Positions 2,239-27,810 of a DNA stretch of 37,827 bases are shown here, one piece after another. This DNA comes from a virus. Made by a program: the position numbers and the translations under genes. Numbering within the stretch: the first letter of the stretch is position 1; the number at the start of each line of letters is the position of its first letter. The notes beneath the pieces were generated by a model. It saw only the letters and a list, made by a program, of their open reading frames with translations, ran no database searches and was not told where the DNA came from. Location of the stretch: UHGV virus genome UHGV-0317053. The stretch is one strand, 5' to 3'.

Positions 2239-2313
2239 GTCCTCTTAGTTAAATGGATATAACGAGCCCCTCCTAAGGGCTAATTGCAGGTTCGATTCCT
2301 GCAGGGGACGCCA
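2239..2313 (+). tRNA. argW: tRNA-Arg (anticodon CCU)
   Basis: 75-nt cloverleaf: acceptor stem GUCCUCU/AGGGGAC, anticodon loop CUCCUAA, T-arm GCAGG-TTCGATT-CCTGC, CCA end; 3' end is G-CCA (discriminator G) rather than A-CCA. Confidence 0.95.
2299..2313 (+). other. attL core (ctgcaggggacgcca) within tRNA 3' end
   Basis: Matches attR copy at 37603..37617 with one mismatch (g vs a). Confidence 0.8.
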
Positions 2314-2474
2314 TTTATCAGTTCGCTCCCATCCGTACCAGTCCGCAAAATTCCCTGAATATCAAGCCTTCCGTAGATTCACAGTTCGTAATGGTTCGCG
2401 TCAGATCGTTGACAGCCGCACACCATGACGGGTAAAAAGTGGATAAAATAATTTTACCCACCGGATTTTTACCC

Positions 2475-3632
2475 ATGCTCACCGTTAAGCAGATTGAAGC
2501 AGCAAAGCCGAAAGAAAAACCATACCGCCTACTCGATGGTAATGGCCTGTACCTTTATGTCCCTGTATCAGGGAAAAAGGTATGGCAGCTTCGCTACAAG
2601 ATTGACGGTAAGGAGAAAATCCTGACTGTCGGAAAATATCCGCTTATGACTTTGCAGGAGGCAAGGGATAAAGCATGGACTGCGAGGAAAGACATCTCGG
2701 TTGGCATCGATCCGGTAAAGGCGAAAAAGGCTTCGTCTAACAACAATTCCTTTAGTGCAATTTACAAGGAATGGTACGAACACAAGAAGCAAGTCTGGTC
2801 AGTAGGGTATGCGACTGAACTTGCAAAAATGTTTGATGACGACATTATACCCATCATCGGCGGCCTTGAAATTCAGGATATTGAGCCGATGCAACTGCTG
2901 GAAGTAATCCGCAGATTTGAAGATCGCGGTGCAATGGAGCGAGCCAACAAAGCACGAAGAAGATGCGGCGAGGTTTTTCGTTACGCTATTGTCACTGGTA
3001 GGGCTAAATATAACCCGGCACCTGACCTTGCTGACGCCATGAAGGGATACCGCAAGAAGAACTTCCCGTTTCTTCCTGCAGACCAGATCCCGGCATTCAA
3101 CAAAGCACTGGCAACATTTTCAGGAAGTATCGTATCGCTCATTGCGACCAAAGTTTTACGCTACACTGCCCTAAGAACGAAAGAGCTTCGTTCCATGCTA
3201 TGGAAGAACGTCGATTTTGAAAACAGGATTATCACCATCGACGCCAGTGTGATGAAAGGACGCAAAATTCATGTGGTCCCGATGTCAGACCAGGTGGTTG
3301 AACTTCTCACTACGCTAAGCTCAATCACCAAACCAGTATCAGAGTTTGTTTTTGCCGGGCGCAACGATAAGAAGAAGCCAATCTGCGAGAACGCGGTATT
3401 GCTTGTGATCAAACAAATCGGCTATGAGGGTCTGGAAAGCGGTCACGGATTCAGGCATGAATTCAGCACAATTATGAACGAGCACGAATGGCCTGCCGAC
3501 GCCATTGAAGTGCAACTGGCACATGCCAACGGCGGTTCTGTGCGTGGAATTTACAACCATGCTCAGTATCTCGATAAGCGCAGAGAAATGATGCAGTGGT
3601 GGGCAGACTGGCTTGATGAAAAGGCATCATAG
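2475..3632 (+). CDS. intS: P4-family tyrosine integrase
   Basis: N-terminus MLTVKQIEAAKPKEKPYRLLDGNGLYLYV typical of P4-type integrases; C-terminal HGFRH box and catalytic Tyr region; directly 3' of the tRNA. ATG at 2475 chosen (385 aa); ORF-track start 2439 is an upstream in-frame extension. Confidence 0.9.
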   Translation: MLTVKQIEAAKPKEKPYRLLDGNGLYLYVPVSGKKVWQLRYKIDGKEKILTVGKYPLMTLQEARDKAWTARKDISVGIDPVKAKKASSNNNSFSAIYKEWYEHKKQVWSVGYATELAKMFDDDIIPIIGGLEIQDIEPMQLLEVIRRFEDRGAMERANKARRRCGEVFRYAIVTGRAKYNPAPDLADAMKGYRKKNFPFLPADQIPAFNKALATFSGSIVSLIATKVLRYTALRTKELRSMLWKNVDFENRIITIDASVMKGRKIHVVPMSDQVVELLTTLSSITKPVSEFVFAGRNDKKKPICENAVLLVIKQIGYEGLESGHGFRHEFSTIMNEHEWPADAIEVQLAHANGGSVRGIYNHAQYLDKRREMMQWWADWLDEKAS

Positions 3633-3990
3633 AAGAGCACAAAGCCTTGCGTCCAGTGCAAAGCTTTGTGTGTCTCAGTTTTGTCCTGTGCGCCAGATAT
3701 TGAATGGCCTCGGCACCGTAACGTATCCGATCGCGCTTCCTGCAGGTGCTGTGCCGGTCATAATTGTTTCAGACCTGATTTCCAGTGACCCTGGAGATAC
3801 TCACGTAATTCACCAGTCGGTTGTAATTAACGCCTCTCGAACAGTTAGTGGATTTTCCGTACGGCAGAGATCAACCGGCACAACAACACCGGCAAACGGC
3901 TACGCATGGGAGATAATATATGCGCCTGTTTAATCCAGTAACAATGACAGAAGTTACCCCCGGTTTTCACGATGACGGAAATTCCAGAAG

Positions 3991-4023
3991 GAAAAATGCT
4001 CGCCGTGAATGACAACGGCGAGC
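3991..4023 (-). terminator. intrinsic terminator ending the late/tail operon
   Basis: 9-bp perfect stem gctcgccgt/acggcgagc, 8-nt loop, followed on the minus strand by ATTTTTCC; 16 bp downstream of the tfa stop. Confidence 0.5.
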
Positions 4024-4038
4024 CTGTATTGATTGATG

Positions 4039-4458
4039 CTACACAGAAGGCGGTACCGGCCAGTCAGGATTAGCGGTATCGACAGCATTCAGTTTGTCGA
4101 TGTAGGCCAGCCAACTGATTAGGCTGGCCTTTTCAGCATCGTTGATGATGCCGAGCAGTAGCTTACTCTGCCAGTTGCTAATTGTGGATTGTGCTTTCTC
4201 CTGTAACGTAGACTTTCTTAATTCTGCCGCAGCGACCAGCTGTTCCTGAGTTAGCGCTGGAGCGTCAATCCATATGGGCAGGCCATCACTTCCCGCCGCG
4301 CGTATCTTCCCCTCTGGTGGCTCTCTTGTAAATTCATTAAAAATAGCTTCATCAACATCAATGCCATCATCAGGCCAGCTCCCTGCCGAAAGATAATTTT
4401 CTTTTAGCAAATACGGATAAAACGCGTTTTTTGATGGGCTGAAAATATAATTAGTCAT
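4039..4458 (-). CDS. tail fiber assembly protein (Tfa)
   Basis: N-terminus MTNYIFSPSKNAFYPY and C-terminal ...SWLAYIDKLNAVDTANPDWPVPP typical of Tfa chaperones; ATG 4458 has AGGAT SD; ORF-track start 4533 is an extension. Confidence 0.8.
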   Translation of the reverse strand: MTNYIFSPSKNAFYPYLLKENYLSAGSWPDDGIDVDEAIFNEFTREPPEGKIRAAGSDGLPIWIDAPALTQEQLVAAAELRKSTLQEKAQSTISNWQSKLLLGIINDAEKASLISWLAYIDKLNAVDTANPDWPVPPSV

Positions 4459-4477
4459 ACTAATATCCTGTACGTAT

Positions 4478-5083
4478 CTAGTTTCCGATTGCCATATAGT
4501 TGAATGCTGGTGATGAATTTGAGCCTCTCGCAAAAAATTGCGAATTGCTCAGCACTGACGTTGCGATATATTCCAGCGACGAAGTACCACCGTCTGTCCC
4601 CAAAACAATGAACGCTGAGTTAGGAAACGCGACGGGAAACGTGTGGGTTGTGCCACTCATTGACGTTGTTGCACTACCCCACTGGATAACCAGACTACTA
4701 CGAGCGCCGCCAATTATCAGCGGCATGTAGGCGTAGCCATTATTCTCCAGTGTACCAGACGAAACACCCGCCAGGGCGATGTCTCCCAAACCAAGGTTTT
4801 CGAGAGCCGTTTTCACCGTGCCATCCGATTTGATATCACCAAACGGATTCTTGCGGCTTAACAGCAGCGCACGAAGCGCGGTAAGCAACTGGTCGTGCCG
4901 CCCCTTCTCCAGGCTGGCACCGGATGCCTCCACCACGCTGCAAAGCTCCTCCTGCAACATGTCAAAGTAGTCATCATCCAGATCGGTGGCAGGCGTGCCT
5001 GTCTGGGGGTTACCACGGGTAAAACCGTTCTTACCCGCGCCGAACTTATCCTTCTGCGCGGTTTTCGTGTCTATACGATGCAT
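4478..5083 (-). CDS. tail fiber protein (short, 201 aa)
   Basis: Conserved fiber N-terminus [40 protein letters not shown]; lies between DUF2313 baseplate gene and tfa. Confidence 0.7.
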
Positions 5084-5086
5084 GGA

Positions 5087-5671
5087 TTACTCCGGATATT
5101 TAAAAATTACGTAGGTATGCGACGGGCAGAGTTTGTTAAGCACACACTCGACAACGGTGTCGCCCCAGATACGCAGCGCGGAATCACAGGGATCGCCACA
5201 TGTCATCCAGGTGGTGTTGGTGGCGGCTGGCATGTTGACCTGCCAGTAATACCGCCATTCCGGCGCATTCACCGCGTCAGTACAGGCAGATGAGCAGGTG
5301 AACGTGCTTTTGTCGTATCGCGTGATGGTAGCGTCTGGTCTGCCCAGGGCAGCAAGCTGTGCAAGATAAAAATTCTCGTTGATGCCGCCCGCCAGGTTAA
5401 CCTTCGCATCCAGCCGTTGCTGACGCTGGCGAAGGGTCTGCGTCCCTGCCGGAATACATTCATCCGGCAGACCGCACAGACGCTCCCAGCGGTTTATCAG
5501 TTCAGTGGTGGTGCGCGGATCCAGCTCCCGCATCAGGGCATCCGCACGCTGATGAACGCGGGTTAATGACGGTGCCGCACCGGCAATCGCCGGATCGCTG
5601 GCTGACCACGCCGGACCGGGGGGCAACAGTGCCGACAACAGACGGATGTAATCATCGTTTGTCACGTCCAT
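5087..5671 (-). CDS. baseplate/tail protein, DUF2313 (Mu gp48 / YmfQ-like)
   Basis: Family recognised from sequence and position after J-like baseplate gene. Confidence 0.65.
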
Positions 5672-6720
5672 GAAATCGTCCCCAGAACCGCCAGTTCATT
5701 TTTTGCAATGGAGATATTGTCTGCCGGTGCAAGCAACTGATGGCTGTATTCCCCGTTCGCACCGGAAATCGCTTCACTGATACGTGACACCTTCAGTTCT
5801 CCCTGCGGATAACCATCACGCAGCAGGAACGAACGCAACTCGGCGGTGATGGCAGCCCGTATTTCTGGTGTGTCCGGCGTCACGCGGATATGAAAATCCA
5901 CCGTATGTGCCACCGGCCTGAACACATACAAATCAGAGCCTGCCACCGGGGCCAGTGGCTCGATATGTTGTCTTGCCGCCGTTTCCGTTGATTCTTCCGG
6001 AATGGGATTAATCAGGTCACTGCTGGCAATCATCACACCGACAGTTCCCGTTCCCATCCAGTGACGGTATGTCCATGCGCGGGTAATGCCGGGCACTTCT
6101 TTAGCCCAGACGACATAGTCCCCGTCAGCCCCGCCCTGCGGCGTCCAGTAATACCGCTCAATGACGCGGGCGCGCCACGTTTCCAGCTCTTCAGTATCAA
6201 ATCCGCCTGTCAGGGTGTCAGCCACACCGGAAGACGGCAGACCATTCACCGGCGTGACCAGGATTAATGCCGTACCGTCGTCAGCGTTACCGACCGCGCC
6301 TGTAGTTGAGCAAGTGATCGGCACACGCAGGACACCACCAGTGCTGGTTGCATCGGCAGTTGCCGTGTACTGAACCAGGTCATCGCGCTGAATAACACTC
6401 CCGGCGGTCACCTTCAGGCCATCGCTGACACCTTCCCAGCGCATATACCCGCTGGCAGCCGTGGCCCCCTTGCGCGGACACCGTTTCATCGCAGCATGTC
6501 GCGCCAGCCAGGACTCATCGCACAGATCAGGCAGCATGTTCATTGCCAGATAATCGATGTAACCGTAAACCGTATGCAGCGCCGCCGCATACACCTTTGC
6601 CCGCACGTCTTCATCCATGCGCCGGAGCGTGTCGCTGACGTCCAGCCTGGCGAATAAATCGTTACGGAGCATACTGATATTTTCTGCCAGCGTCGGGCGC
6701 TGAAATTCACTGTCCGCCAT
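5662..6720 (-). CDS. baseplate J-like protein (Mu gp47-like)
   Basis: 352 aa; position and sequence character of baseplate J family; overlaps neighbours by a few codons. Confidence 0.7.
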
Positions 6721-7135
6721 GCGTTATCGCACTCCACAGATCATCAAAAGAAATCATTACCGGTCCGTCACGACGCCAGAGGGTGATACTGTTACCCAGC
6801 TCATTAATCCCGGTGCGGCGGATATCCAGATCAATACGGGACACCACGCCGTCATCAATCATCCATTGCAGGCATTCGCGGATATACCCCCTTACTGTCT
6901 GCACCAGCTGATTGGTCAGTTTGCTGCGCTGAAGCAGCCACAGTCGGGAGCCGTAACGGTCATTCTGTACCGCAGGCCAGGTATCCCCCCACCATCCCAT
7001 CGGGACGTCGGCGTTGTCATCAGGCTCCGCCCGCCGCCAGGTAAACAGGGAAATCACCACGGCACGGGTCAGCGGATCCAGCGGTGCGCTGGCGCAGGTG
7101 CGTTTACCGTTCACCGTCAGCCACAGTTCCATCAT
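6707..7135 (-). CDS. baseplate protein (Mu gp46-like)
   Basis: 142 aa; conserved position between V-like spike and J-like genes. Confidence 0.6.
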   Translation of the reverse strand: MMELWLTVNGKRTCASAPLDPLTRAVVISLFTWRRAEPDDNADVPMGWWGDTWPAVQNDRYGSRLWLLQRSKLTNQLVQTVRGYIRECLQWMIDDGVVSRIDLDIRRTGINELGNSITLWRRDGPVMISFDDLWSAITHGGQ

Positions 7136-7680
7136 GCCTCCATCGCTTTATCCGGTTTGTCGGTGTTACTGCCCTGACCGTTCTCTCTGTGACGATGCCC
7201 GTTATAGGCAAGCCGCATCGCTGACATGGTAGTGCCGCTGGAGTCGCACAGGTCTTTCACCTGTCCTGTCACTTCCAGGTCCATTTCAAAACGTGCTTTA
7301 GGTGAATTGCGAAACGTGATCGTTTTACCTGCACCGTCCACCACGATCCCCTCCCGGGTCAGCGTCACGGACTGCCCCTGATCGTCATAGACAGCCACCT
7401 CACCCGTCTGCAGCCCTTTCAGGCGGTAGCGCCGGTCCGACACCGTAACAACCACCGCATGAGAACGGTCGCCATCCGGAAACAACACCACCGCTTCCGC
7501 ACCGCTGTTTGCCCTTGCGGTAAAACCGTAGGGTTCAAGATGTTCAATCCCGGCTTTGGGTTCACCGGCAATCAGGGACACATCCACGGTCTGACATTTC
7601 GTGGCGGCACTGATGCTTTTCACCACGGCCCGCCCAATCAGGCCGAGGAGTTGTCGCTGCATGGCTTCAATCGTCCTCAT
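7132..7680 (-). CDS. baseplate assembly/spike protein V-like (Mu gp45-like)
   Basis: 182 aa; position in Mu-type baseplate block. Confidence 0.65.
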   Translation of the reverse strand: MRTIEAMQRQLLGLIGRAVVKSISAATKCQTVDVSLIAGEPKAGIEHLEPYGFTARANSGAEAVVLFPDGDRSHAVVVTVSDRRYRLKGLQTGEVAVYDDQGQSVTLTREGIVVDGAGKTITFRNSPKARFEMDLEVTGQVKDLCDSSGTTMSAMRLAYNGHRHRENGQGSNTDKPDKAMEA

Positions 7681-8759
7681 CAGAACGGGTCCTCCTGTAC
7701 TCTGGCTTTTTTCTTTTTCCGCGCGCCGGGGGCTTCGGGTTCAGGCAGATAAGCATCAGGCGGGCCGACACGGATTTCCGTCAGGGTGCCGTTCTGGTCC
7801 TGAGTAAACGTGACTTCCGAAACAAGCAGTTCGGTATTGTCGAAACCACAGACCGGATCAAAGACAATCACCCGCTGGTTGGGCTGCCACAGCGTACCGT
7901 TACCCTGTCGCCAGCCCTGCACCACATAGGTGGTTTCATCCGTCCGCGCCGCCCGTTGTCGGGCTTCAAAGTCAGCACGGGCAATACAACCTGCCCCCGT
8001 AGCCTGCCCTGTCTGCCTGATATACATCGGACGGTAACGGGCAATAAATGCGTCCTCTGTGCGGGCCCGCAGCGCGGTGGTGGTGGCCTCACCGAAATCA
8101 TCGTCGTTTCCGGCACGCTGCCCCGCCACCTGGTAAACAGAAAATCGCTCCCGGATACTCTTCTCCGTATCGCAGGAAAGGATGTTTTCCCCGAGTACCA
8201 GCGCGGTATGTGCCCGCGTTGAGCCAATACCGCCAATCACCAGCCTGCCGTGCGGGTCGTCATAAGCCAGCGCCTGCTGCTGACCGAGTATTTTGTTAAT
8301 CACCTCGATCACCGTTTCACCGTGATCAGGCTGGACATCAGGAATAACACCCGACGGCGCACCGCTGTTCACCACCTCAATGCCGAAGGGCGCAGCAAGC
8401 GCCTGCGCAATCTGTACCAGTGATCGTCCGTTAAACTGTGTCGGTTCAGCTGCACAATCAATCAGGTCAGCGGTCAGACTGCGTCCGGCAATACCGGTGC
8501 TGACCGAACGGGCATCGTAACGAACGGGCGTCGCCTCCACCCAGCCGGTGATCACCAGCTCATCACCAATCAGCACCTCCACTTTTGAACCGTTTTTAAT
8601 GCGCGGCTGAAGCGTGGTGATACCCTCATCACCCGGCCACTGGCGGGTGATCTCCACACTGAAATCCCGCGCCAGTCGTTCAACACCGGCACCGATGCGC
8701 ACCGATGTCCAGCCATTCCACTCCCGTCCATTTACCCGTAGCGTGACATTGTCGTTCAT
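7680..8759 (-). CDS. baseplate hub / tail protein (Mu gp44, P2 gpD-like)
   Basis: 359 aa; follows DNA-circulation gene as in Mu/SfV tail modules. Confidence 0.65.
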   Translation of the reverse strand: MNDNVTLRVNGREWNGWTSVRIGAGVERLARDFSVEITRQWPGDEGITTLQPRIKNGSKVEVLIGDELVITGWVEATPVRYDARSVSTGIAGRSLTADLIDCAAEPTQFNGRSLVQIAQALAAPFGIEVVNSGAPSGVIPDVQPDHGETVIEVINKILGQQQALAYDDPHGRLVIGGIGSTRAHTALVLGENILSCDTEKSIRERFSVYQVAGQRAGNDDDFGEATTTALRARTEDAFIARYRPMYIRQTGQATGAGCIARADFEARQRAARTDETTYVVQGWRQGNGTLWQPNQRVIVFDPVCGFDNTELLVSEVTFTQDQNGTLTEIRVGPPDAYLPEPEAPGARKKKKARVQEDPF

Positions 8760-10084
8760 TGCACTGGCACCTTCAGAGGGATCACCGGCACAAAGCCGGG
8801 ATGCGTAATGGCATTACGCCGGATAATGTCCGCATCACGCGCCGCGTTATCAAACCAGGTCGCCGCCAGCACCAGCGCGGGTAAAACCTCATCCGGTGTG
8901 CGCTGAATGATCCGTGCAGACTGTTCAAGGCGCGTGTTGATATCCGCATTCAGATCTGCTTTCACCCGGCGCAGTGCCAGAAACAGCGCATCACTGGTTG
9001 TACGGGACAACTCCTTATCAATTGCCGTATTCAGTGTGTCGCGAATGTCAGTCAGTTCTTCCCACGTCGGCAGGTCAACCGTGTTTTTCACCGCCGGTGC
9101 ATTGTTCAGTGCCGGATGCGTGACGGAAGGCCAGCCAGTGCTCTGCGCAGGTGTTGTTGCCTGCCCCACTGCGGAATTCTGCATCACCGCGGAAGTTGTT
9201 GGCGCAGGCAATCGGGTGACGGCATACGCCGCTTCGCTGATTGCGGTCGTACGAAGGGTGCTGGCAACCACGTTACGCTGCTGCGTCGCCGTGGCGGTAG
9301 TTTTACTGTCCGTTTTCCAGACGCCGCGCGGTTGCAGATCGCTGCCTAGGCTGACACCGGAAAGCGTTTTGATCATGGTGACCAGGTCGCTGGCGTTACC
9401 ATAAAGGCGTTTCCCGGTACGCCACATTTTCTGCACCTGCTCAACGAAATTTTTGCCTGACGATGGTGGCGGCAGAAGTACCGAGATATCCCCCTGCAAC
9501 AGCCTGGCAGCATCCGATACGGCAGAATCCACCACTTTCATCGCATCAGAAACATACCCAAGCATTGTGCTGGCATTACCAACGACGTCGTTCTGCACAA
9601 AATCCGCCACGCCATCGATACTGAAACTGCTGAAGCTGTCACTGATGCAGTCATCCAGTGCAGAACAGGATGACATCAGCGTCTGCGCCGTCGCCGCACC
9701 TGATGTGGGGTAAGAAAGTTCTCCTGCTTCGACAAACTTCAGGTCAAAGCGGACAATACGCCCTTCACTCTTCGATGTGCTGACCCTAACTTCCCCGTCA
9801 ACACAGACTTTCAGCTCACCGTAAGTCGGATGGACAAGCGTGCCGGGACCGGGTTTATTCAGCGCGTCAATCAGGCGATCGCGCTGGTCAAAGCAGTCAT
9901 CTCCCACCACATAAGCTGTGATGGACGGGCGGAAAGTGATTTTCCCCAGGTCTTCGGTATAGGGTTTGTCGCGGTTCGGGTATTCGTGCGTTTCCACACG
10001 ACGACCGGTTCCCGCACTTTCTTCTTCAACCTTAAACGGCACACCGCGAAATGACGCGTCCTGAAGTCTGTCTTTCCACGTCAT
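8756..10084 (-). CDS. DNA circulation protein (Mu gp43-like)
   Basis: N-terminus MTWKDRLQDASFRGVPF typical of family; ATG 10084 has GGAG SD; ORF-track start 10126 would run through a terminator-like hairpin. Confidence 0.65.
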   Translation of the reverse strand: MTWKDRLQDASFRGVPFKVEEESAGTGRRVETHEYPNRDKPYTEDLGKITFRPSITAYVVGDDCFDQRDRLIDALNKPGPGTLVHPTYGELKVCVDGEVRVSTSKSEGRIVRFDLKFVEAGELSYPTSGAATAQTLMSSCSALDDCISDSFSSFSIDGVADFVQNDVVGNASTMLGYVSDAMKVVDSAVSDAARLLQGDISVLLPPPSSGKNFVEQVQKMWRTGKRLYGNASDLVTMIKTLSGVSLGSDLQPRGVWKTDSKTTATATQQRNVVASTLRTTAISEAAYAVTRLPAPTTSAVMQNSAVGQATTPAQSTGWPSVTHPALNNAPAVKNTVDLPTWEELTDIRDTLNTAIDKELSRTTSDALFLALRRVKADLNADINTRLEQSARIIQRTPDEVLPALVLAATWFDNAARDADIIRRNAITHPGFVPVIPLKVPVQ

Positions 10085-10099
10085 ATAAACTCCGTACAT

Positions 10100-10121
10100 A
10101 AAAAATCCCACCGGAGTGGGA
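10100..10121 (-). terminator. terminator-like hairpin between tape measure and DNA-circulation genes
   Basis: stem cccac/gtggg with 4-nt loop, followed on minus strand by T6. Confidence 0.35.
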
Positions 10122-10144
10122 CTCATTAACAGATTAATTTTTCA

Positions 10145-11980
10145 TTACCTGCCAAAGCGCGTATAGCCAACATCATGGCTGACATCAAAACCGCTGGATC
10201 GCGTTTCCATAACCCGCATACCCGGAGGCGAATTCACAAAAGAGACCTTGATCTCACCATCAACTTTTGGCGCAGAAGCTTTGTTAATCATGAAGGGATT
10301 CGGGCCTGTGGCACCGGAGGCGTTGTTTGACTGAGCCGGATCTACCGCCTGATAAGGTGTGTATCCCCGTGCCGGTATTCCCGTCCCATAAGCATCATAA
10401 GCACCCGCGCCCCACTGCGCAGAGTTAATGGCATCGACCGTGTCACCGGAACTGTCGGTAAACCACTCAATAATTGGCTTCAGTTTGTCCCACATATCCT
10501 GAAACCACTTAACAACCGGTCCCCAGTTATTGATTACCATCCCCAGCGGCGACCAGGCAAAAACCTTCTTCAGAAGCTCCCGGCCAGCCTCAAAATAAGG
10601 ACCAATGGTTTCCCAGAGCTTCTTGAAATAAGGTCCGACAACATCCCAGTTAGTGATAATTAATCCCGCAGCCAGGGCTATCGCCGTCGCAATCATGCCA
10701 ATCGGCGTCATCGACATGATCCTGCTGACAATACTGATGGCACCGCCAACGCCCATCAATCCCAGTTTCAGAATCGCAAGACCGGCAGCAAGCCCGACGA
10801 CGCCGCGAATAACCCGGGGATTTTCATCCGCAAACTTCGTGAATTTTTCCCCCAACTCCCCCAGCCATTGCGTGATATTTTTGGCGTCACCAGAAAATGC
10901 GCCGCCAATAGCCGCAAGGCCGTTAGTTGCGGTCCCCGTCATTGCCTCCCACAGGTTGGACAGCGTACCAAGCTGGGCCTGAACACGTTTATTCAGGCTG
11001 GCCTGTTTATTCATCTTCTGCTGGATCTGATCGTAGCCATCCTTTCCTTTATCGATCAGTGCATTGACCACCTGAAGGGTTTCGGCATCATCACCAAATA
11101 TTGCCTTAAGTACACCTGTTCGCTTAACGTCGGTCAGTTTTCGCAGCTTTGCCAGTTGCCTGAACATGTTATCAAGACCGCCAAAACTTCCTTTGCCGTC
11201 AGTAAAATCGAGCTGTACCCCGAGTTTCTGGCGGGCCATGACTTTATTGACGTCCCTGATTTTCTTAACGCTTAATCCGGACTGGATAACTTTTCGCAGG
11301 GCATTACCTGCCGACTCCCCGTTCATCCCCATCTGATCCATCATGACACTGATGGGGGCAAGACTCTGTGCAGCCTGAAGACCGTCCTTGTTCACCATCT
11401 TCAGAACAGAGCTGGTTTTAGTGAAGAATGACAGCATGTTGGTGTCGTCAACGCCCAGATAAAACGCCTTCTGAATTGTGTCGAACAGCCCCATCATGTC
11501 TTCTGAGACCGTTCCGGTAGCATCCTGCATCTTTGCGGCAAACTCGGCAGCCGCTTCCGGTGTTTTTTTCAGTTGTACCGCAAGATAAGCTGTCGCTTTA
11601 CCCACACCGCCAAGAATGTTTTCTGCCGGGATCCCCTGACGCACCAGCATCTGCATCATGTTCTGAAAATCAGCTGTTGTACCGGGTAGCTGGTTACCCA
11701 GGCCAATAGCCAGTTTATTGATGTCCTGAAAGCGCTTTCCAACCTCGCCGTTCGCATCCATCATGGCGACTTTCAGCCCGGTGGCGGCGTTTTCCTGATC
11801 GGCATAAGATTTCAGGGAAAGCGTCAGACCCGCTGCCAGTCCGCCACCAAGCGCCAGCCCACCCTGTGACGCTTCTTCCGCCTGGCGTTTAAATCCCCGG
11901 ATTTTCTTTTGCATTTTCGACAGCGCGGGAGAAAGCCTGTCGACACCGGTGATCAACGCCTTAAGCTCAAATTCAGCCAT
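10145..11980 (-). CDS. tail tape measure protein
   Basis: 611 aa, Ala/Gly-rich with coiled-coil N-terminus and hydrophobic segment; follows chaperone frameshift pair. Confidence 0.85.
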   Translation of the reverse strand: MAEFELKALITGVDRLSPALSKMQKKIRGFKRQAEEASQGGLALGGGLAAGLTLSLKSYADQENAATGLKVAMMDANGEVGKRFQDINKLAIGLGNQLPGTTADFQNMMQMLVRQGIPAENILGGVGKATAYLAVQLKKTPEAAAEFAAKMQDATGTVSEDMMGLFDTIQKAFYLGVDDTNMLSFFTKTSSVLKMVNKDGLQAAQSLAPISVMMDQMGMNGESAGNALRKVIQSGLSVKKIRDVNKVMARQKLGVQLDFTDGKGSFGGLDNMFRQLAKLRKLTDVKRTGVLKAIFGDDAETLQVVNALIDKGKDGYDQIQQKMNKQASLNKRVQAQLGTLSNLWEAMTGTATNGLAAIGGAFSGDAKNITQWLGELGEKFTKFADENPRVIRGVVGLAAGLAILKLGLMGVGGAISIVSRIMSMTPIGMIATAIALAAGLIITNWDVVGPYFKKLWETIGPYFEAGRELLKKVFAWSPLGMVINNWGPVVKWFQDMWDKLKPIIEWFTDSSGDTVDAINSAQWGAGAYDAYGTGIPARGYTPYQAVDPAQSNNASGATGPNPFMINKASAPKVDGEIKVSFVNSPPGMRVMETRSSGFDVSHDVGYTRFGR

Positions 11981-12155
11981 GTGTGCGTTTCTCCTGCTCT
12001 ATCCTGTTTGCCTGACTGACCAGCAAGGGAATTTCACTGATCGGCATATTCAGCAATTCGAAGGGATTAATGCGCCAGTAGCTGGCGCAGTCAAAGAAGC
12101 GATCAGTGAGGTATTCAGCCGTCAGGCCTGGAGGAAAAAACCAGCCACAAGCCAC
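11973..12155 (-). CDS. -1 frameshift extension of the tail assembly chaperone (GT-like product)
   Basis: ORF in the -1 frame overlaps the chaperone 3' end and the tape-measure start; slippery T TTT TTC present. Confidence 0.55.
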   Translation of the reverse strand: MACGWFFPPGLTAEYLTDRFFDCASYWRINPFELLNMPISEIPLLVSQANRIEQEKRTHG

Positions 12156-12391
12156 GCCGCTGCATTCAGGTCTGCCGGAGACATCTGGTCGACAGAGTTT
12201 TGCGGCACTTTCGCCAGCCGCACAATGTATTTCGATACCACATGCGCCAGAAGTCTGACGGACTCATCCTGATTCATCTGGTAGGGATACCCCAGCTCGC
12301 GGACATCTTTCCCGGTGGGCTCATCAAACTCCAGTACGGAGAGTGTCTCGCCATGAGCGGTAATCGGTTTCTTTAACTCAAGCTCTTTCAT
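12122..12391 (-). CDS. tail assembly chaperone (lambda G-like)
   Basis: 89-aa ORF directly upstream of tape measure; ends over slippery heptamer. Confidence 0.7.
   Translation of the reverse strand: MKELELKKPITAHGETLSVLEFDEPTGKDVRELGYPYQMNQDESVRLLAHVVSKYIVRLAKVPQNSVDQMSPADLNAAAWLVAGFFLQA
12134..12140 (-). other. slippery heptamer T-TTT-TTC for programmed -1 frameshift
   Basis: minus-strand reads GGT TTT TTC CTC in zero frame; -1 frame stays open to 11973. Confidence 0.55.
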
Positions 12392-12747
12392 TACTGGTAA
12401 TCCCCTTCTTCACCGTGGAACTCAAGATCAACCGTCCCTTCTTCGGCATTATGGTTCGCTTCGCCGTGCAGCCAGGCAGACGACAGTACATAGACCTGAC
12501 CGTTCGCCAGCTCGGCAGTGATGGTCATCTCATCAGACGAGGTGATTTTGCCCACCGGAAAATTCTTCGGCACCTTGAAGGTCCCTTTAACATAAGACGC
12601 ACGGTGAGTTTCCTTGCGGTCCACTGAACCGTCCAGGCCGATGATGTCATCATTGACCGTCCTGTTCATGGGCACCTCAATGCCGCCGGTCAGCGATAGC
12701 TGCTGACCGTCAATTTTGAAATAACAGGTTCCCCCGATACGGGCCAT
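12391..12747 (-). CDS. tail tube protein
   Basis: 118 aa, immediately downstream of sheath gene. Confidence 0.7.
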   Translation of the reverse strand: MARIGGTCYFKIDGQQLSLTGGIEVPMNRTVNDDIIGLDGSVDRKETHRASYVKGTFKVPKNFPVGKITSSDEMTITAELANGQVYVLSSAWLHGEANHNAEEGTVDLEFHGEEGDYQ

Positions 12748-14240
12748 TATGCAGACTCCTCTGAATACTGAAGACGGAACTGGTTAACCACAGCAAAAAC
12801 ACGCAACTGGTTAACATAGTCAGGCGGGAACAGCGTGTTCAGGCGGTTCGGATCGCTGGCATCACGCTCCACAACCAGGTACTGCTTAAACAGTTCGTAG
12901 TTTTCCACGATCCCCGCACGCTCAAGCTGACGGTAGGTTGCCAGCAGTTCCCCTTTGATTACCGCCGGGGTGACAATCGCCTGACCGGGACCAAAGCGGG
13001 TACCGTCGCTGGCAAGCTTGTGACGCCCGTACTTACTGGTAATGACGGATTTCAGTTTGCGCAGCACATACGCGCTGGTATGCAGCGTCTCGCTGTCGAG
13101 GTAGCTGTTATCCGCAACACCGTAAGCGTTTTTCCTGTACGTGGTGACATCACGCTGAATGCGCAGCACCCCGCTTTCGACATACGCCGTTGCCACGCCA
13201 TGAGACAGCAGGGTCTGTTGTTCGGTCATCGTGAACCGTTTCCCCTTCGGCGCAGGCAGCATACCCACCAGCTCACCGGTCTGCGTGGGACGTGCCGGAT
13301 CGTTGCGAATAAACACCGCTGCGCGGGCGGTACGGCTTGCCGCCAGCTCGTCGGCAGGCGTCTGGGTCTCTTTTTCGTATCCCGCCAGGGTAATGTGCTG
13401 CTGGTTAAACTGGTCACCTGCGGTCACCAGTTCTGACAGCGTGCCGATCTTTGCCGTATACACATGACCATACAGCTGACGCGCATAGCTCCAGCGACCG
13501 CTGGTATCGTTCATCTCGGTCACCAGCGTGTTAACGGAGGCCGTGTCGTTGAACGGCAGGCCGATATAATCAAACGGCTCATCCGCCATTGCAGCCACCG
13601 CGCCGGTGAGAACAGGAGCGCCCGTTCCGGCGGTACCCGTCGCCACGGCAATCTGTACGCCCGCTGGCAGCACTTCGCCCCCACCAAAGCCGTAGTAATT
13701 GAGGCTGACAGGAATTTCATTCCCGCAAAGCCCCTTATGACGCGCGGTCAGTGTGACCACGCCTGCCGAAGATGAGGCAGTAAACGGCAGGGTCGGAACG
13801 GCATTGATGGCATCTTTGATACTGCTGGCAATCGTCGCGACGTTATCGCCGTTGGTCACCGGTGCCTGCACGCGGGTACGTCCCACATAAACATTCACCG
13901 TGCCGGTTTCGGTTGCCGCGCCGGTCACCGTCAGCGTAACTGTTGCCGCCGCGCCCGTGGATTCAGGAACGGCAATCACATACAGTTCACCAAACGGGTC
14001 GGTCTGGCGATAAGCCTCGACCATACGCGCCAGCTGACTTCCCGCACCACAAATCTGGCGTGCATAGTCTGCCGATGGCATCAGCACCAGACTGTTGGCA
14101 ACAATCTCTGCACCGTTATTGGCATGACCAATCAGCAGCGATGCTCCGCTGTCCTGTGCAGTATTCGCCGCCGAGTTATCCATTTCCGCATAAAAAATCG
14201 GAACCAGCGTATTCGACGGAATGGTGTTAAAGCTCGTCAT
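12747..14240 (-). CDS. contractile tail sheath protein
   Basis: 497 aa; N-terminus MTSFNTIPSNTLVPIFYAE typical of sheath proteins. Confidence 0.85.
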   Translation of the reverse strand: MTSFNTIPSNTLVPIFYAEMDNSAANTAQDSGASLLIGHANNGAEIVANSLVLMPSADYARQICGAGSQLARMVEAYRQTDPFGELYVIAVPESTGAAATVTLTVTGAATETGTVNVYVGRTRVQAPVTNGDNVATIASSIKDAINAVPTLPFTASSSAGVVTLTARHKGLCGNEIPVSLNYYGFGGGEVLPAGVQIAVATGTAGTGAPVLTGAVAAMADEPFDYIGLPFNDTASVNTLVTEMNDTSGRWSYARQLYGHVYTAKIGTLSELVTAGDQFNQQHITLAGYEKETQTPADELAASRTARAAVFIRNDPARPTQTGELVGMLPAPKGKRFTMTEQQTLLSHGVATAYVESGVLRIQRDVTTYRKNAYGVADNSYLDSETLHTSAYVLRKLKSVITSKYGRHKLASDGTRFGPGQAIVTPAVIKGELLATYRQLERAGIVENYELFKQYLVVERDASDPNRLNTLFPPDYVNQLRVFAVVNQFRLQYSEESA

Positions 14241-14394
14241 CGGTATTCACCTTTTCATTCACGCGCCGGATATCACCCGCTGCTTCACGGCGCAGCCAGT
14301 AGTTGTTCTCATCAACATTTCGCCCCTCGGCGGGCAAAAGGTCGCCGCGGGCAGGGTCAGGAACTGACCGCCCTTTAACAGGTTTCACAAACAT
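14227..14394 (-). CDS. small hypothetical protein (55 aa) upstream of sheath
   Basis: ATG 9 nt after preceding stop, stop overlaps sheath start; no clear SD; below ORF-track size cutoff. Confidence 0.3.
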   Translation of the reverse strand: MFVKPVKGRSVPDPARGDLLPAEGRNVDENNYWLRREAAGDIRRVNEKVNTDDEL

Positions 14395-14402
14395 GAAGAT
14401 TC

Positions 14403-14963
14403 TCAGGAAGGAAGGGTTATTTCGGTGTGATGTTCGATATCGCCGTCAGGCCCGTTACCGGGATCGAGATAATCAACATCAATCGCCAGCGTTCGCAGTT
14501 CATCCAGACTGTTCAGGTCATCCTGCTGGCGGGTATCGTCTTCGGTCAGCTCGCTGATGACCGAAAAATCGAACTGATAAATCAGCTCATGACGATTCAG
14601 ATCCAGCAGCGTGCCGCCGTCATAGGTAATCGGGTTACCGCACGCTTCCGGGTTCCAGCCCAGCAGAGCCTTAAAGAGCATCTGCCGGACATCGTCCACC
14701 ACATCATACGAGGCAAACTGACCGCGCTCATCACGCCCGTTACTCAGTATGACAACCACGGAGAAGCCCTCTTTCAGCTCCTGCCAGTAGTCGGTCTGGC
14801 TTTTGTTTTCTCCCGGAGAGTCATCACCCGGTACCACATACGCCGCCGGGAGTCTCAGCTTTCCGACCTCCGGCAGATTTTTGAACTGTGCCGCGCCTGC
14901 TACCCGGTTTTCAAAATACGGGCAGCGGGCACGCAGCGCAGCAATAACAGGCGTCAGTTTCAT
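14403..14963 (-). CDS. putative tail completion/neck protein
   Basis: 186 aa between head-tail joining genes and sheath; family not recognised. Confidence 0.45.
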   Translation of the reverse strand: MKLTPVIAALRARCPYFENRVAGAAQFKNLPEVGKLRLPAAYVVPGDDSPGENKSQTDYWQELKEGFSVVVILSNGRDERGQFASYDVVDDVRQMLFKALLGWNPEACGNPITYDGGTLLDLNRHELIYQFDFSVISELTEDDTRQQDDLNSLDELRTLAIDVDYLDPGNGPDGDIEHHTEITLPS

Positions 14964-15466
14964 CTGTGTCGTCGCTCCGGCTTCAGTGATTTACGCAATT
15001 CCCGCGCCAGAAAATAGCGTGTCCAGCTGCGGTTCTTTTCAAGAGTTTCCACCATGAAGTTATTACGTGGAGCCAGTCGCCAGCCGCTGCCACCGGATGC
15101 ACCACGATGATGACTACGACGACGTTTTGCTCCTCCCCGGACACCAAAAAACAGAAACGCCGGATAGAAGTCACCAGAGATCATCCGGTTCCCCTTCCCG
15201 TTGCGCTGGTTAGGGGCAATGCGTGTCATAAAACCGGCTCGCTTTTTACTGGCTCTCGGCACCATATAACCAATCGAACGAGCCAGGCGTCCGGTCTGAT
15301 AACCGGGGTTTTCACCCGGTGCCGACCGCGCACGGCGCATCACCAGCCGACGGGCATCACGCATATGACGCTGCCCAATCGTGACAAACGCCCGCCGGAC
15401 ACGGGCGCGGTTAAAGCGCATCTCGGCGGGCTGCTGAACATCAACGTGAAAAAAGGGAGTCGCCAT
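14960..15466 (-). CDS. basic virion morphogenesis protein (HK97 gp10-like?)
   Basis: 168 aa, Arg-rich; position in head-tail joining block. Confidence 0.45.
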   Translation of the reverse strand: MATPFFHVDVQQPAEMRFNRARVRRAFVTIGQRHMRDARRLVMRRARSAPGENPGYQTGRLARSIGYMVPRASKKRAGFMTRIAPNQRNGKGNRMISGDFYPAFLFFGVRGGAKRRRSHHRGASGGSGWRLAPRNNFMVETLEKNRSWTRYFLARELRKSLKPERRHR

Positions 15467-15851
15467 TGCTGCCTCCGTGACTCTGCCTACATTCGCCCAG
15501 CTCCGTACACTCCAGCAGCAGAAAGCGCCGCGCCCCGTTCAGATCACGCTGACGTTTCACCCGGTACACACTGTCATCACAGACCACCTCATAATCAGCA
15601 GTGATCCCCCGGCGGTAACGAATGGTGATGTAATGGGTGATGGCGTCCCCGGTCTGCGCGGTTTCCTGCCAGGTGGTGGCACTGGTCTGGATAACCTTCG
15701 CCCATGTCCGGAACGTAACCGGGTATTGAGGCTCCACGCCAAAGTTATCCGCGGGCATATCCACCCGCTGGCGGATCAGGACGCGTTTATTTAGTTCACC
15801 GGGGTCCGGCAGAATGTAGGTTGCGCTGGTCTGCGCCTGACGAATTTTCAT
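15441..15851 (-). CDS. head-tail adaptor / head closure protein
   Basis: 136 aa downstream of gp6-like connector gene. Confidence 0.5.
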   Translation of the reverse strand: MKIRQAQTSATYILPDPGELNKRVLIRQRVDMPADNFGVEPQYPVTFRTWAKVIQTSATTWQETAQTGDAITHYITIRYRRGITADYEVVCDDSVYRVKRQRDLNGARRFLLLECTELGECRQSHGGSNGDSLFSR

Positions 15852-16171
15852 TGCGGAAAGTACCTGTACGGGCCGACAAGCCAGCCAAAACTCTGCGGCA
15901 TGTCGAGTTTCTCCACTTCCGTAACCGACGAGCGGTTTTCGTAAAAATGGCTGATAAGCATCAGCATCCCCAGACGAATATCATCCGGCAGGTGCAGCCC
16001 GTCCGGATCGCTGTCCGGAATGGTTTCATCCGGTGCATAGAGCTTCCGGTTCAGATACGTTTCCGTCCGCTTTTGTGCCGCACTGGCCAGCAGTTGCAGA
16101 TGGCGGTCATCAGCATCGAAATCCTCATCCAGCCGGAGTTGGGCTTTAATCTCTTCCATTGTCAGAAGCAT
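15848..16171 (-). CDS. head-tail connector protein (gp6-like)
   Basis: 107 aa; N-terminal MLLTMEEIKAQLRLD pattern typical of gp6-like family. Confidence 0.65.
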   Translation of the reverse strand: MLLTMEEIKAQLRLDEDFDADDRHLQLLASAAQKRTETYLNRKLYAPDETIPDSDPDGLHLPDDIRLGMLMLISHFYENRSSVTEVEKLDMPQSFGWLVGPYRYFPQ

Positions 16172-16173
16172 AC

Positions 16174-16374
16174 TCAGCCCTCTTTACTGGTCGTGGCTTT
16201 TTTCTCTTTTGTCGCTTTACTGCTTTTTGCACTGGTTCCGCGCTCTGCTAACCCGGCCTGAAGTGCAATCTCCTGCACCCGGGCAGGAAGCGCCCCGTCG
16301 TCATACTCACCGGCCCGAATGACCTCAACACGCATACCGTCCGGTGACCATTTCAGATCTTGTTTCAGGATCAT
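16174..16374 (-). CDS. small Lys/Ser/Thr-rich phage protein
   Basis: 66 aa between capsid and connector genes. Confidence 0.4.
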   Translation of the reverse strand: MILKQDLKWSPDGMRVEVIRAGEYDDGALPARVQEIALQAGLAERGTSAKSSKATKEKKATTSKEG

Positions 16375-16422
16375 GATTCTTCACCCGTCAGAACAGGGGC
16401 GCGGTTCCGCGCCCCTGAGTGA

Positions 16423-17628
16423 TTACGCCACTGCAATCTTCAGCAGTTTGATGGCCTGCGAATCGACCAGCATGCCGCCGGTGCGTTTGGTGGTATAAAA
16501 ACCGACAAACGGTTTATTGGTGTACGGGTCACGCAGAATGCGGGTGCCGATACGGTCAACGATGGTGTAACCCCGTTTGAAGTTACCAAATGCAATGGCT
16601 TTCGCATCAGCGGCGATATCCGGCATCTGTTCGTTTTCAGCGATACCGTAACCCGCCAGAGAGGACGGCTGCCCCAGCTCCAGCCCCGGACGCCACAGAT
16701 AGTTACCCTCGCTGTCTTTCAGCAGACGGATGGCAAACAGGCTATTGTTGTTCATCATGAACTTCGCGCCTGTGCGGTGTGCCTTACGCAGCGTGTAAAT
16801 CAGTTTGATAATGGCGTCTGCGGTCACCGCCGTCGCGTCGCCGGATACAATATGCTGAAGTTTGCCGAACGCCCGGACCTTATCGGTTTCATCCGTGGAT
16901 TCATACGCCAGGAACCCTTTCGGCTTCTTGGTACCATCGCCGGTGGTAAAGGCAATTTCTTCCTGTTCGGCAAATTCGGTTGCCAGCTCGCTGTTGATCC
17001 ATGCTTCCACGTTGAAAAAGGCATCATCCAGCATTTTCTGGGTGGCCTGCGGGTTACCGTAGATTTCCCCCATGAAAGGTTCAATCAGGCCCAGTTTTGA
17101 GGTGGCAGTCTGGGAGCGCGCGTCAGTCTCACCAACCCATCCGGAAGCCGTGCCGCCCAGATTCACCAGTTTTTTGTAGTCGGAACCACCAACGGTGATC
17201 ACCGTGGCTTCCTGGCGCATCACCACTTCATCTTTCAGCAGGGTGAGAATGTTGCGATCCAGTGCTTCCGGCACGGCATAGCCGCCGTCTTCATCGGTGC
17301 CCACCTGTAATGCCTTGCGCTCCAGATCGCGCAGACCATCTTCACGGCCTTTACGCAGGAAGCCCACAAACGCTTCTTTATGCTCGGTGGCCAGTTTATT
17401 TTGCGCACCACCTGCCGGACGTTTCAGCTCAAGCAGCTCTTTTTCAAGATCGCTTTTGAGGTTTTCCAGCTCGCTGAGTTTCCCGTTCAGGGTTTCCACC
17501 TGCCCGGCAAGCTTGCCTTTTTCCTGCTCAATCGCATCCACGCGCTTGTCGTTCTTTGCTTTGAAGTCGTCAAACTTCTGCTGCAGCTCCTGCGCGACCT
17601 GTTCGACATCTTTAATATCAACCGCCAT
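16423..17628 (-). CDS. major capsid protein, HK97 family
   Basis: 401 aa with N-terminal coiled-coil delta domain and HK97-fold hallmarks. Confidence 0.9.
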   Translation of the reverse strand: MAVDIKDVEQVAQELQQKFDDFKAKNDKRVDAIEQEKGKLAGQVETLNGKLSELENLKSDLEKELLELKRPAGGAQNKLATEHKEAFVGFLRKGREDGLRDLERKALQVGTDEDGGYAVPEALDRNILTLLKDEVVMRQEATVITVGGSDYKKLVNLGGTASGWVGETDARSQTATSKLGLIEPFMGEIYGNPQATQKMLDDAFFNVEAWINSELATEFAEQEEIAFTTGDGTKKPKGFLAYESTDETDKVRAFGKLQHIVSGDATAVTADAIIKLIYTLRKAHRTGAKFMMNNNSLFAIRLLKDSEGNYLWRPGLELGQPSSLAGYGIAENEQMPDIAADAKAIAFGNFKRGYTIVDRIGTRILRDPYTNKPFVGFYTTKRTGGMLVDSQAIKLLKIAVA

Positions 17629-17642
17629 CGTATTTCTCCTGA

Positions 17643-18293
17643 TTAGAAGTTCAGATTTTTCAGTGCATTCAGTGCAGAGCCCACATCCTCAGCGTCGCGC
17701 AGGGACAGTGCGCCATAGCCCCCGGCCATGAATGCTTTGGCCTGGGTACGGGAGAGTCCGACATCACGCAGGACTCTTTCGATTTTTTTCTGTTCGGGGA
17801 TTTCCCCGCGGGCCAGTGCGTTCTTGACGTCGCTGATCCGCGCCTCGTCGTTAGACGGGAACGTCACCAGGCTGACTTCCCAGAGGTCGATTTCTTTCAG
17901 CAGAAAGGCTTCTTTGCTCCGGTCGTATTCCCAGTCTTTCAGGACGTACCCAATAGAAAGGCCGGTTAACGAACCGGCCTTCATGTGTGCATGTGCGCGT
18001 TTTGCGAGGGGATCATCATCAATAAGCAACCGTCCCCTGACGTAAAGCCCGACATCGTCTTCCTTCATTTCAGTGTAAACACCGATGGGTTCATCCATGC
18101 GGTGCTGCCAGAGCAGCGCAGGTAACGCTTTTCTGTCACTCCACGCCCGCAGGGAAGCAGCAAATGCCCCGGACATCACCACATCATCGTGGCTGTCCTT
18201 TACACCAAAGACGGAGCCATACCCTTCAAACTCACCGGAGTCACTGACAGATTTCAGACTCAGCGGTACATCAAGACGTTGTTTCGTCTGCAT
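17643..18293 (-). CDS. prohead protease (HK97 family)
   Basis: between portal and capsid; ATG 18293 (MQTKQRLD...) preferred, ORF-track start 18329 overlaps portal more. Confidence 0.8.
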   Translation of the reverse strand: MQTKQRLDVPLSLKSVSDSGEFEGYGSVFGVKDSHDDVVMSGAFAASLRAWSDRKALPALLWQHRMDEPIGVYTEMKEDDVGLYVRGRLLIDDDPLAKRAHAHMKAGSLTGLSIGYVLKDWEYDRSKEAFLLKEIDLWEVSLVTFPSNDEARISDVKNALARGEIPEQKKIERVLRDVGLSRTQAKAFMAGGYGALSLRDAEDVGSALNALKNLNF

Positions 18294-19512
18294 TGGAGTT
18301 ATCCTTCTGCTTACCGGCTTTACTGCCATCGGAGGGTTTCGTGGTCATGTTCATCGGTGTGAGATAGACATCACCACCGGGACGCGGATTCATATCTTCC
18401 AGGTCGCGGCAGTCATTGGGAGAGTAAATTCCCCAGTTGATCCCGGTGGCGTAGGCTTCAAAACGGGACTTCATATCCCCGCGCAGTAACGCCCCGGCGT
18501 TAAATTTGGCGTAATAAACGCCCTGCTTACTTTTTCGTACCAGTCCGGTGTTGATCCGCTGTTCGATGCGGGTCAGATACGGCACCAGTGAATAGTTGAT
18601 AAATCCCAGCCCCAGCTCTTCGATATTGTTGAAGGTGGCGCGATCGGTGTTCTGCACCATGTGCAACGGCACCCGGAACAGACGACAGATTTCTTCAAGC
18701 TGAAACTTGCGGGTTTCCAGGAACTGGCTGTCCTCGGCGTTCAGCGCCATCGACTTCCAGTCCAGCCCCATCTCAAGGATCATCGGGCGGTGAGCATTAC
18801 CAAGCCCGGTGTGACGCTCCTCAAAATCTTTCTTCAGGCGCTCGTAAGCCTGATCTGACAGCGTCTGCTCTGTACGCAACACACCCGACGTCACCGCGCC
18901 ATTGCTGAACAGTCTGGCCCCGTGCTCTTCGGTCGCTGCCGCCAGCGATATTGCCTCGCGGGCATAGGCGATGGGATTCAGTCCCACCAGACCGTCCAGC
19001 GTCAGCGTGCGCACATGCCAGATATCTTCCTGGCTCAGTACATCCGTGGAGCCGTCCGGGAATGTGACCTGGTAAACCGGTTCCCAGCTACTGTTAAGCT
19101 TCGGTACCACACAACCTGGGTCGACGGGCAGCAGTTCAGCCACTTCGCCAAATGCTTTCACTTTGTAGGCGTAAAAGTTTCCCCGCAGGCACAGACAGGT
19201 GACCACCAGCTCCCAGAACTCCTGCGGCGTCATATAGCCATTGGGATGCGTGGAGATCAGCTTATGCAGACGTTCGCCGGTGGCTCTCTGTTTCAGGCTG
19301 CCGTTCAGGTGATACAGGTTGCAGGGCAACATCCCGACCGACTCCGCCAGCACCCTGACGCAGGAAAAAACCGCCGTCAGTCGCATGGCCCGCTGGCTGC
19401 TGATCTGCTTTCCGGTATAGGTGTCATATGACAGCCCGATAGCATCCGCCAGCTCTGCTGGCGTGGTCACCGGTGCGTCACTTTTTCGTTGAAATAATCC
19501 CGAAAAGAACAC
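18271..19512 (-). CDS. portal protein (HK97 family)
   Basis: 413 aa; position after terminase. Confidence 0.9.
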   Translation of the reverse strand: MFFSGLFQRKSDAPVTTPAELADAIGLSYDTYTGKQISSQRAMRLTAVFSCVRVLAESVGMLPCNLYHLNGSLKQRATGERLHKLISTHPNGYMTPQEFWELVVTCLCLRGNFYAYKVKAFGEVAELLPVDPGCVVPKLNSSWEPVYQVTFPDGSTDVLSQEDIWHVRTLTLDGLVGLNPIAYAREAISLAAATEEHGARLFSNGAVTSGVLRTEQTLSDQAYERLKKDFEERHTGLGNAHRPMILEMGLDWKSMALNAEDSQFLETRKFQLEEICRLFRVPLHMVQNTDRATFNNIEELGLGFINYSLVPYLTRIEQRINTGLVRKSKQGVYYAKFNAGALLRGDMKSRFEAYATGINWGIYSPNDCRDLEDMNPRPGGDVYLTPMNMTTKPSDGSKAGKQKDNSNADETTS

Positions 19513-19694
19513 TATTTACCTCCGCCGACAGACGGCTGTGTACGGTCGAGATATCGCGCCACCAGCCACGACCAGAACAGGCACAGCGCCCCGGCAACAA
19601 CAAACCCCGCCGGGGGATAAATCAGCCAGGCACCATACGCCAGCAAAAGCGCACCCAGCACGCCCACCAGAGGCGCGAGAATCAGCATGATCAT
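19512..19694 (-). CDS. small two-helix membrane protein
   Basis: 60 aa, two hydrophobic segments; exactly fills gap between terL stop and portal start. Confidence 0.45.
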
Positions 19695-19705
19695 AATTAC
19701 CTCAG

Positions 19706-21930: not shown

Positions 21931-22055
21931 ATGCGGCACTCCTGGTTAAATTTCATTTTTCGCGGGTATAAAAAAACGATGGGGCGGGCAGTCCGGAAGA
22001 CGTCAGGTCACAGAGATTTGACCCGCCCCTCCCCTCAGACAGTTGAGAATTATTA

Positions 22056-22406: not shown

Positions 22407-22533
22407 AAAATACTCTCTTTAATCTGATAGACATATTTGACAAAAGAGATTCATTTTTCTCTTTCACTCTTTCCTTTATGAGAAAAATCTGATAACAAGG
22501 TTCTAATAAAAGTAACTAAACACAGGTTATAAC

Positions 22534-23972: not shown

Positions 23973-23975
23973 AAA

Positions 23976-27809: not shown

Positions 27810-27810
27810 C

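Follow-up and report, generated by a model that had tools for sequence, protein, structure and literature searches.

A probably phage-borne G at the discriminator position of argW at the attL site of an IntS-type prophage

The window, the whole stretch of 37,827 nucleotides analysed here, contains within its 37.8 kb a single tRNA gene according to ARAGORN, a tRNA-Arg with anticodon CCT at 2239-2313 (+), and shows the chromosomal context of argW, yfdC-argW-(island)-dsdC. The left flank (mlaA-yfdC-argW) and the right flank (dsdC) are 99-99.7% identical to E. coli chromosomes. The features to which we refer below are as follows.

2239..2313, + strand: argW, tRNA-Arg(CCU), 75 nt with CCA encoded (ARAGORN)
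2299..2314, + strand: attL core CTGCAGGGGACGCCAT, the 16-nt core with one mismatch
2300..2309, + strand: putative strand-exchange (overlap) block TGCAGGGGAC, bounded 3' by a G/A difference (window) and 5' by a C/A difference (lysogen L73)
2310..2310, + strand: discriminator N73, a G, probably the phage-derived allele; the usual E. coli argW base is A
2314..37602, no strand: prophage body of ~35.3 kb, with SfV/SfII-like myovirus structural genes and a lambdoid early region
2315..2474, + strand: attL P' arm, which probably overlaps the promoter region of intS (sequence comparison with phage attP)
2475..3632, + strand: intS, tyrosine integrase of the KplE1/HK620/Sf6 type, 385 aa (Pfam, similarity and annotation in matching genomes)
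37329..37529, + strand: torI, recombination directionality factor, 66 aa (translation identical to K-12 TorI)
37603..37618, + strand: attR core CTGCAGGGGACACCAT, the displaced host argW 3' end, with the host A kept at 37614

The sole difference between the window argW and that of K-12 is a G for A at 2310, the discriminator of a 3' end that reads ...TTCGATTCCTGCAGGGGAC-G-CCA; over the 402 positions from argW through attL to the start of intS, the window differs from K-12 at 10. Position 73 is unpaired in the cloverleaf, and the predicted structure and its energy (-26.0 kcal/mol, ViennaRNA) are the same as for K-12 argW. An altered fold caused by G73 was rejected, since minimum-free-energy structure and energy are unchanged. 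Arginine identity in E. coli is specified by A20, C35, U/G36 and a purine (A/G) at position 73, of which A20 and C35 are the main determinants (reviewed in PMC9976931), and the window argW carries this set: D-loop AATGGATA with an A after GG, anticodon C-C-T, and G73.

A search of the window for the 15-mer CTGCAGGGGACRCCA, allowing one mismatch, returned only two matches, 2299-2313 (with G) and 37603-37617 (with A), where 0.02 matches are expected by chance and none of 100 shuffles had two. The flanks, argW and IntS on the left and TorI and dsdC on the right, show the repeats to be att sites. The sequence-only reading of this DNA had reported that attL ends ...GGGGAC-G-CCA and the copy at attR (37603-37617) ...GGGGAC-A-CCA, and this is what we find: the left copy reads CTGCAGGGGAC-G-CCA and the right copy CTGCAGGGGAC-A-CCA, with A at 37614. 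The published 16-nt KplE1 core is CTGCAGGGGACACCAT (PMC2951348). The two window copies agree at 15 of 16 bases, the mismatch being G in attL and A in attR; they differ because the G at the 12th base of the core is present in attL only. The attR core is the counterpart of the K-12 pseudogene pawZ. On the phage side of attL, the P' arm is identical or near-identical to the attP P' arms of HK620, Sf6, HF4s and HZ41. The KplE1 attL overlaps the intS promoter (PMC2951348), and the window P' arm has one promoter-like consensus match (2425-2452), which is no more than expected by chance. The window's own P arm, ctgctactccaggtag, is rare, its best matches being 96% identical.

The integrase gene starts 162 nt downstream of argW and is transcribed away from the tRNA, and its product has the Pfam domains Arm-DNA-bind_3, Phage_int_M and Phage_integrase. 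The attL-intS stretch (2280-3700) is 95-97.5% identical at the nucleotide level to its counterparts in HK620, Sf6, CUS-3 and HZ41, and over the aligned attP-int stretch the identity to HK620 and Sf6 amounts to 96-97%. At the other end of the prophage, torI stops 74 nt before the attR core and is also annotated in matching genomes; its ORF had no Pfam match at 1e-3, and its identity follows from the exact match to K-12 TorI. These features make the prophage a clear member of the KplE1/HK620/Sf6 IntS-TorI module as judged by sequence comparison. The right end of the prophage (33700-37530; ORFs of 274, 187, 120 and 101 aa, then torI) aligns with K-12 yfdQ, yfdR, yfdS, yfdT and torI, and the cryptic CPS-53 remnant thus has a full-length relative in the window, one with the body of an SfV-like myovirus. 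In the set of complete E. coli genomes, the prophage body is matched at best with 98.5% identity over 96% of its length, and at other loci. Five head-to-tail 15-nt units (CAGATTTTGACGGGT-like) at 31062-31136, inside an ORF on the minus strand (30493-31434), look like lambdoid origin iterons in what may be a replication O-type gene.

Of 5426 complete E. coli genomes, 116 contain the 75-nt window argW with 100% identity, and the remaining 5310 carry a copy that differs by one base. A sequencing or assembly error at 2310, a reading that a single-base difference in a repeat might invite, was rejected and has next to no probability, the same base recurring in these 116 genomes, in three IMG/VR contigs and in one phage genome. 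To establish which base the host carries, the sequence-only reading had proposed a comparison with prophage-free strains. The empty argW site of BL21(DE3), read directly, has A73, as does K-12. For the wider comparison, unoccupied sites were sought with two artificial G73 junction queries, one joining argW to the dsdC flank and the other to the GATACCC flank, and a junction was counted when at least 80% of the query was covered (1032 dsdC-flank and 1744 GATACCC-flank genomes). No perfect G73 match was found among these 2776 unoccupied junctions, the best being one mismatch short, as judged from ranked BLAST tables rather than per-genome extraction; a G copy with an additional SNP in the short flank would not top such a list. 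G73 thus occurs in 0 of 2776 genomes with an unoccupied junction versus 116 of the other 2650 (Fisher p = 2e-37, which is only indicative because the genomes are not independent). These comparisons support A73 as the usual host allele of argW.

In the reverse assignment, G73 would be the host allele, the phage would have brought A, the crossover would lie 3' of position 73 and the attR copy would be the variant. This would agree with the A carried by most attP copies and with G73 appearing native for tRNA-Arg(CCU) in other Enterobacterales, e.g., Photorhabdus and Arsenophonus. It is nevertheless highly improbable, given the lack of a perfect G73 match at unoccupied E. coli sites, A73 in 98% of genomes, host flanks in the window that are 99.7% identical to ordinary E. 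coli, and a strand exchange that in lysogen L73 (below) is bracketed 5' of position 73.

Four lysogens with G73 were read at both ends, and in 4 of 4 the attL has G and the attR has A, with an IntS-family prophage alongside; together they span three different prophage bodies and two host right flanks. One of the four is the window itself, with its SfV-like myovirus. In strain WCHEC025943 the prophage is P22-like and full and the host right flank is a different one; the attL has G and the attR reads ...GACACCAGatacc. Strain S1 has a decayed P22-like remnant with G in attL and with A kept in an attR that reads CTGCAGGG--CACCAT; the remnant is riddled with IS1, and the 2-nt deletion in this attR core (34740-34960 of the extracted locus) reflects either attR decay or an assembly error. 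Strain L73 harbors a siphovirus prophage whose integrase is 81% identical to the window IntS and whose P' arm has diverged, again with G in attL and A in attR. At its attR end, the L73 prophage has a gene for a TnpB/InsQ RNA-guided endonuclease beside an xis-like gene (5351-6511 of the extracted locus).

The G allele is also found in a free phage. The attP of HZ41 reads gatgcCTGCAGGGGACGCCATttatcag, a P arm, core and P' arm with G; this record (OM022251), which is flagged UNVERIFIED, is the sole free-phage record found with G in attP. The attP core has A in nine other free phages (HK620, Sf6, HF4s, N7, HK633, Louie, IME10, CurroJimenez and Dewey). In IMG/VR, A is carried by 24 attP copies and G by three attL contigs, and the scan of this collection returned no attP in which G is combined with the same P' arm. 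Its lone G match was rejected as attP evidence because of a different right arm (tctgatcagc...) and neither supports nor refutes a phage origin; this site (UViG_3300011707_000003, 8200-8221), in which P-arm-like sequence is followed by the core with G and an unrelated right flank beginning tctgatcagc..., is probably an attR in a host with a native argW G73. The G allele is therefore a minority, carried by 1 of 10 phage records, or 1 of 34 when IMG/VR is included (about 3-10%), which is comparable to its share among lysogens (2% of all genomes, or ~4% if those with an unoccupied junction of either type are set aside). The virion modules with which it occurs are unrelated to one another and have the IntS recombination module in common, in keeping with the mosaic spread of that module (PMC3509656).

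Could the G instead have arisen by an A-to-G mutation in the attL of a lysogen lineage, with phage and host both carrying A, and have been inherited vertically? Exactly the same P' arm is found next to A73 in K-12 and in many other genomes, with one mismatch over 89 nt, so a single transition separates the two states, and the predominance of A among attP copies would also be explained. Such a mutation should have been equally likely to arise at unoccupied sites, yet G73 was not found at 2776 of them, whereas it is seen with three or more prophage bodies that are unrelated, with two host right flanks and with an integrase only 81% identical to that of the window, and it is present in the attP of the free phage HZ41. 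We consider this origin quite unlikely, and had the mutation occurred far back in the phage lineage, the G of the window would be phage-borne all the same.

The att sites also bear on the position of strand exchange, which the sequence-only reading had placed 5' of position 73. An attP with G and an attB with A that give rise to an attL with G and an attR with A place the exchange 5' of this position, and the distribution of the two bases in all four lysogens agrees with this placement. Lysogen L73 supplies a boundary on the other side, which brackets the exchange between core position 1 and position 73: its attR begins gatgtATGCAGGGGACACCAT (ATGCAGG..., not CTGCAGG...) as opposed to gattcCTGCAGGGGACGCCAT in its attL, a C/A marker that distinguishes ATGCAGGGGACACCAT at attR from CTGCAGGGGACGCCAT at attL (20061-20076; 24874-24889, reverse complement, of the extracted loci). 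Since in L73 the phage-specific A at core position 1 is on the attR side and the phage G is on the attL side, exchange must have occurred inside TGCAGGGGAC. This 10-bp block of identity comprises the last 3 nt of the 3' strand of the T-stem and the 3' strand of the acceptor stem, and the heterologies that flank it segregate by side in L73 and in the window. The local sequence GTC-TGCAGGG-GAC may represent two inverted half-sites around a 7-bp spacer, in which case position 73 would belong to the core-type site on the right and be four bases away from the overlap. We infer from these comparisons that the host/phage junction in argW lies somewhere within 2300-2309; the 5' part of the gene can be taken as host DNA and the sequence from 2310 onward, at least, as phage DNA. 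As a corollary, the IntS crossover would be localized to a 10-bp interval by natural heterologies at att sites, with no experiment required. The literature on this module yielded no experimental report of IntS cleavage-site mapping, nor any such confinement of the exchange to TGCAGGGGAC by natural heterologies.

The same distribution of bases in attL and attR would be expected in one of two daughter cells if position 73 lay inside the overlap and a G/A heteroduplex were resolved by replication or mismatch repair. However, this model also predicts the reciprocal class (attL with A, attR with G) at similar frequency, and among 1529 dsdC-side junctions none perfectly matched an attR in which G is joined to the conserved P-arm end CAAGTAGATGT. 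This again rests on ranked BLAST tables, in which a G copy with an unusual P arm or a SNP in the short flank would not come first, and it leaves out three records with at least 99% identity and lower coverage. Heterology within the overlap strongly inhibits recombination by lambda-type tyrosine recombinases, and the GTC-TGCAGGG-GAC layout would end the 7-bp spacer 4 nt before position 73. Resolution of a heteroduplex is thus very improbable.

Taken together, the data make it highly likely that the G in the window attL is phage-borne and that the crossover lies 5' of position 73. An IntS-type temperate phage with the attP core CTGCAGGGGAC-G-CCAT would have entered the E. coli attB, the argW 3' end CTGCAGGGGAC-A-CCAT, its tyrosine integrase exchanging strands inside the common block TGCAGGGGAC, 5' of position 73. 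Everything in attL 3' of the exchange would then be phage DNA (G73, CCA, and a trailer that contains the P' arm and the putative promoter of intS), and the A73-CCA of the host would have been displaced 35 kb away into attR. Since the G/A difference would lie outside the overlap, in the right-hand core-type half-site, it would not have blocked recombination and each base would be inherited by side. Excision at the same place would presumably leave the host with A73 again and the phage with G, and such restoration of A would explain why G73 is missing at unoccupied sites.

As read from the window, the only argW gene of the lysogen encodes a tRNA-Arg(CCU) with G73, and we infer that this tRNA is expressed, given the sole gene copy and the intact host promoter side. 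The predicted outcome of integration is a reversible, phage-carried change at an identity position of a host tRNA. Either purine is acceptable to E. coli ArgRS at position 73, and argU and argX of the same cell have G73 natively; the G73 tRNA is therefore expected to be charged normally, and the change is probably neutral. It is very unlikely that G73 affects how the argW tRNA, the only one to read AGG directly, is processed or charged, or how stable it is; if it did, a subset of argW-integrating phages would retune a rare-codon host tRNA on integration and restore it on excision. In selected prophage ORFs (2314-37602), 5.1 of every 1000 codons are AGG, which makes up 7.6% of Arg codons, and 5.7 are AGA. 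The E. coli average for AGG is roughly 1-2 per 1000, and AGG and AGA use in the prophage is several-fold above average; the tRNA that reads AGG is that of argW, the phage's own integration target. The biological importance of G73 is likely small, the base being most likely silent in function, and its value is modest: it marks lysogeny, and as a natural heterology it narrows the interval in which IntS crossover can lie. Roughly 2% of sequenced E. coli would carry an argW allele that marks lysogeny by one sub-lineage of IntS-module phages; G73 in argW can be used to flag such prophages in draft assemblies and is not to be annotated as a host SNP.

With respect to the wider occurrence of this base, 70 species representatives, among them Photorhabdus, Xenorhabdus, Arsenophonus, Pantoea and a few Firmicutes MAGs, have a tRNA-Arg(CCU) that combines G73 with the same 25-nt 3' end, and the anticodon was CCT in 20 of the 20 checked with ARAGORN. 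By tblastn, an IntS-family integrase lies downstream of the tRNA in 25 of the 70, several of these matches being partial. No IntS-family integrase was detected by tblastn in the available DNA downstream of the G73 tRNA in three Photorhabdus species with one common flank or in Arsenophonus, and because none was detected, G73 is probably native in such Photorhabdus. A clean split of the 70 species into native and phage-supplied G73 failed, as the remainder may have other integrases or none. It is plausible that the attP G derives from a phage lineage that cycled through hosts with a native G73. A different downstream motif, TATAnnnCTCTCCTGACG...ATTCAnTAAA, recurs 3' of the G73 tRNA at seven loci in several genera, which have no tblastn match to the IntS-family queries or, at one locus, only a 46-aa fragment; this motif may be the arm of another argW-targeting integrase family that also supplies G73.

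The closest known system is KplE1 (CPS-53) of K-12, whose module is common to HK620, Sf6, CUS-3 and Kapi1 and uses the same site, the argW 3' end. We compared the window with published descriptions of this module (PMC2951348, PMC3509656, 10.1101/2021.11.03.467220), and the likeness extends to the 16-nt core, the P' arm, the position and orientation of intS, and the torI-attR layout, with TorI 100% identical. Unlike KplE1, the window has G for A at the 12th base of the core (tRNA position 73), in attL only, and its body is a full SfV-like myovirus rather than the 10-kb K-12 remnant or a P22-like podovirus; mosaic spread of the IntS recombination module has been described by Panis et al. (PMC3509656). 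The core is printed in the A form for KplE1, Kapi1 and SPC-P1, and a full-text literature search returned nothing on the G form; the G73 argW is a minor allele, apparently without earlier description, of a well-known system. The Lederbergvirus HZ41 resembles the window in its attP core CTGCAGGGGACGCCAT, in its P' arm and in an attP-int stretch that is 95.8% identical. It differs in being a P22-like podovirus and in having a C for T directly 5' of the attP core (gatgC), which the window attR lacks; this C extends the identity of the HZ41 site with argW by one base (~401-421 of the extracted locus).

Among the arginine tRNAs of K-12, argU and argX carry G73, and argQ, argZ, argY, argV and argW carry A73. 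Thus argU (UCU; attL of prophage DLP12) and argX (CCG) share with the window argW a G73, which they have natively, although as isoacceptors and in their associated integrases they differ from argW. The annotated K-12 DLP12 prophage starts inside argU (124-200 of the extracted locus), and the G73-CCA end of this tRNA gene is formally prophage DNA.

That an integrating element rebuilds the 3' end of its target tRNA gene is textbook knowledge, and Williams (2002) and Campbell reportedly described elements that restore this end from their own attP copy. Reiter et al. (1989) is also cited for this rule. The window conforms to it in that the element supplies a near-identical 3' segment, the tRNA gene stays intact, and sequence differences beyond the crossover segment go with their own side; it departs from it in that the base by which the phage copy differs is the discriminator, a position of aminoacylation identity, although the exchange of one purine for another is one that the synthetase accepts.
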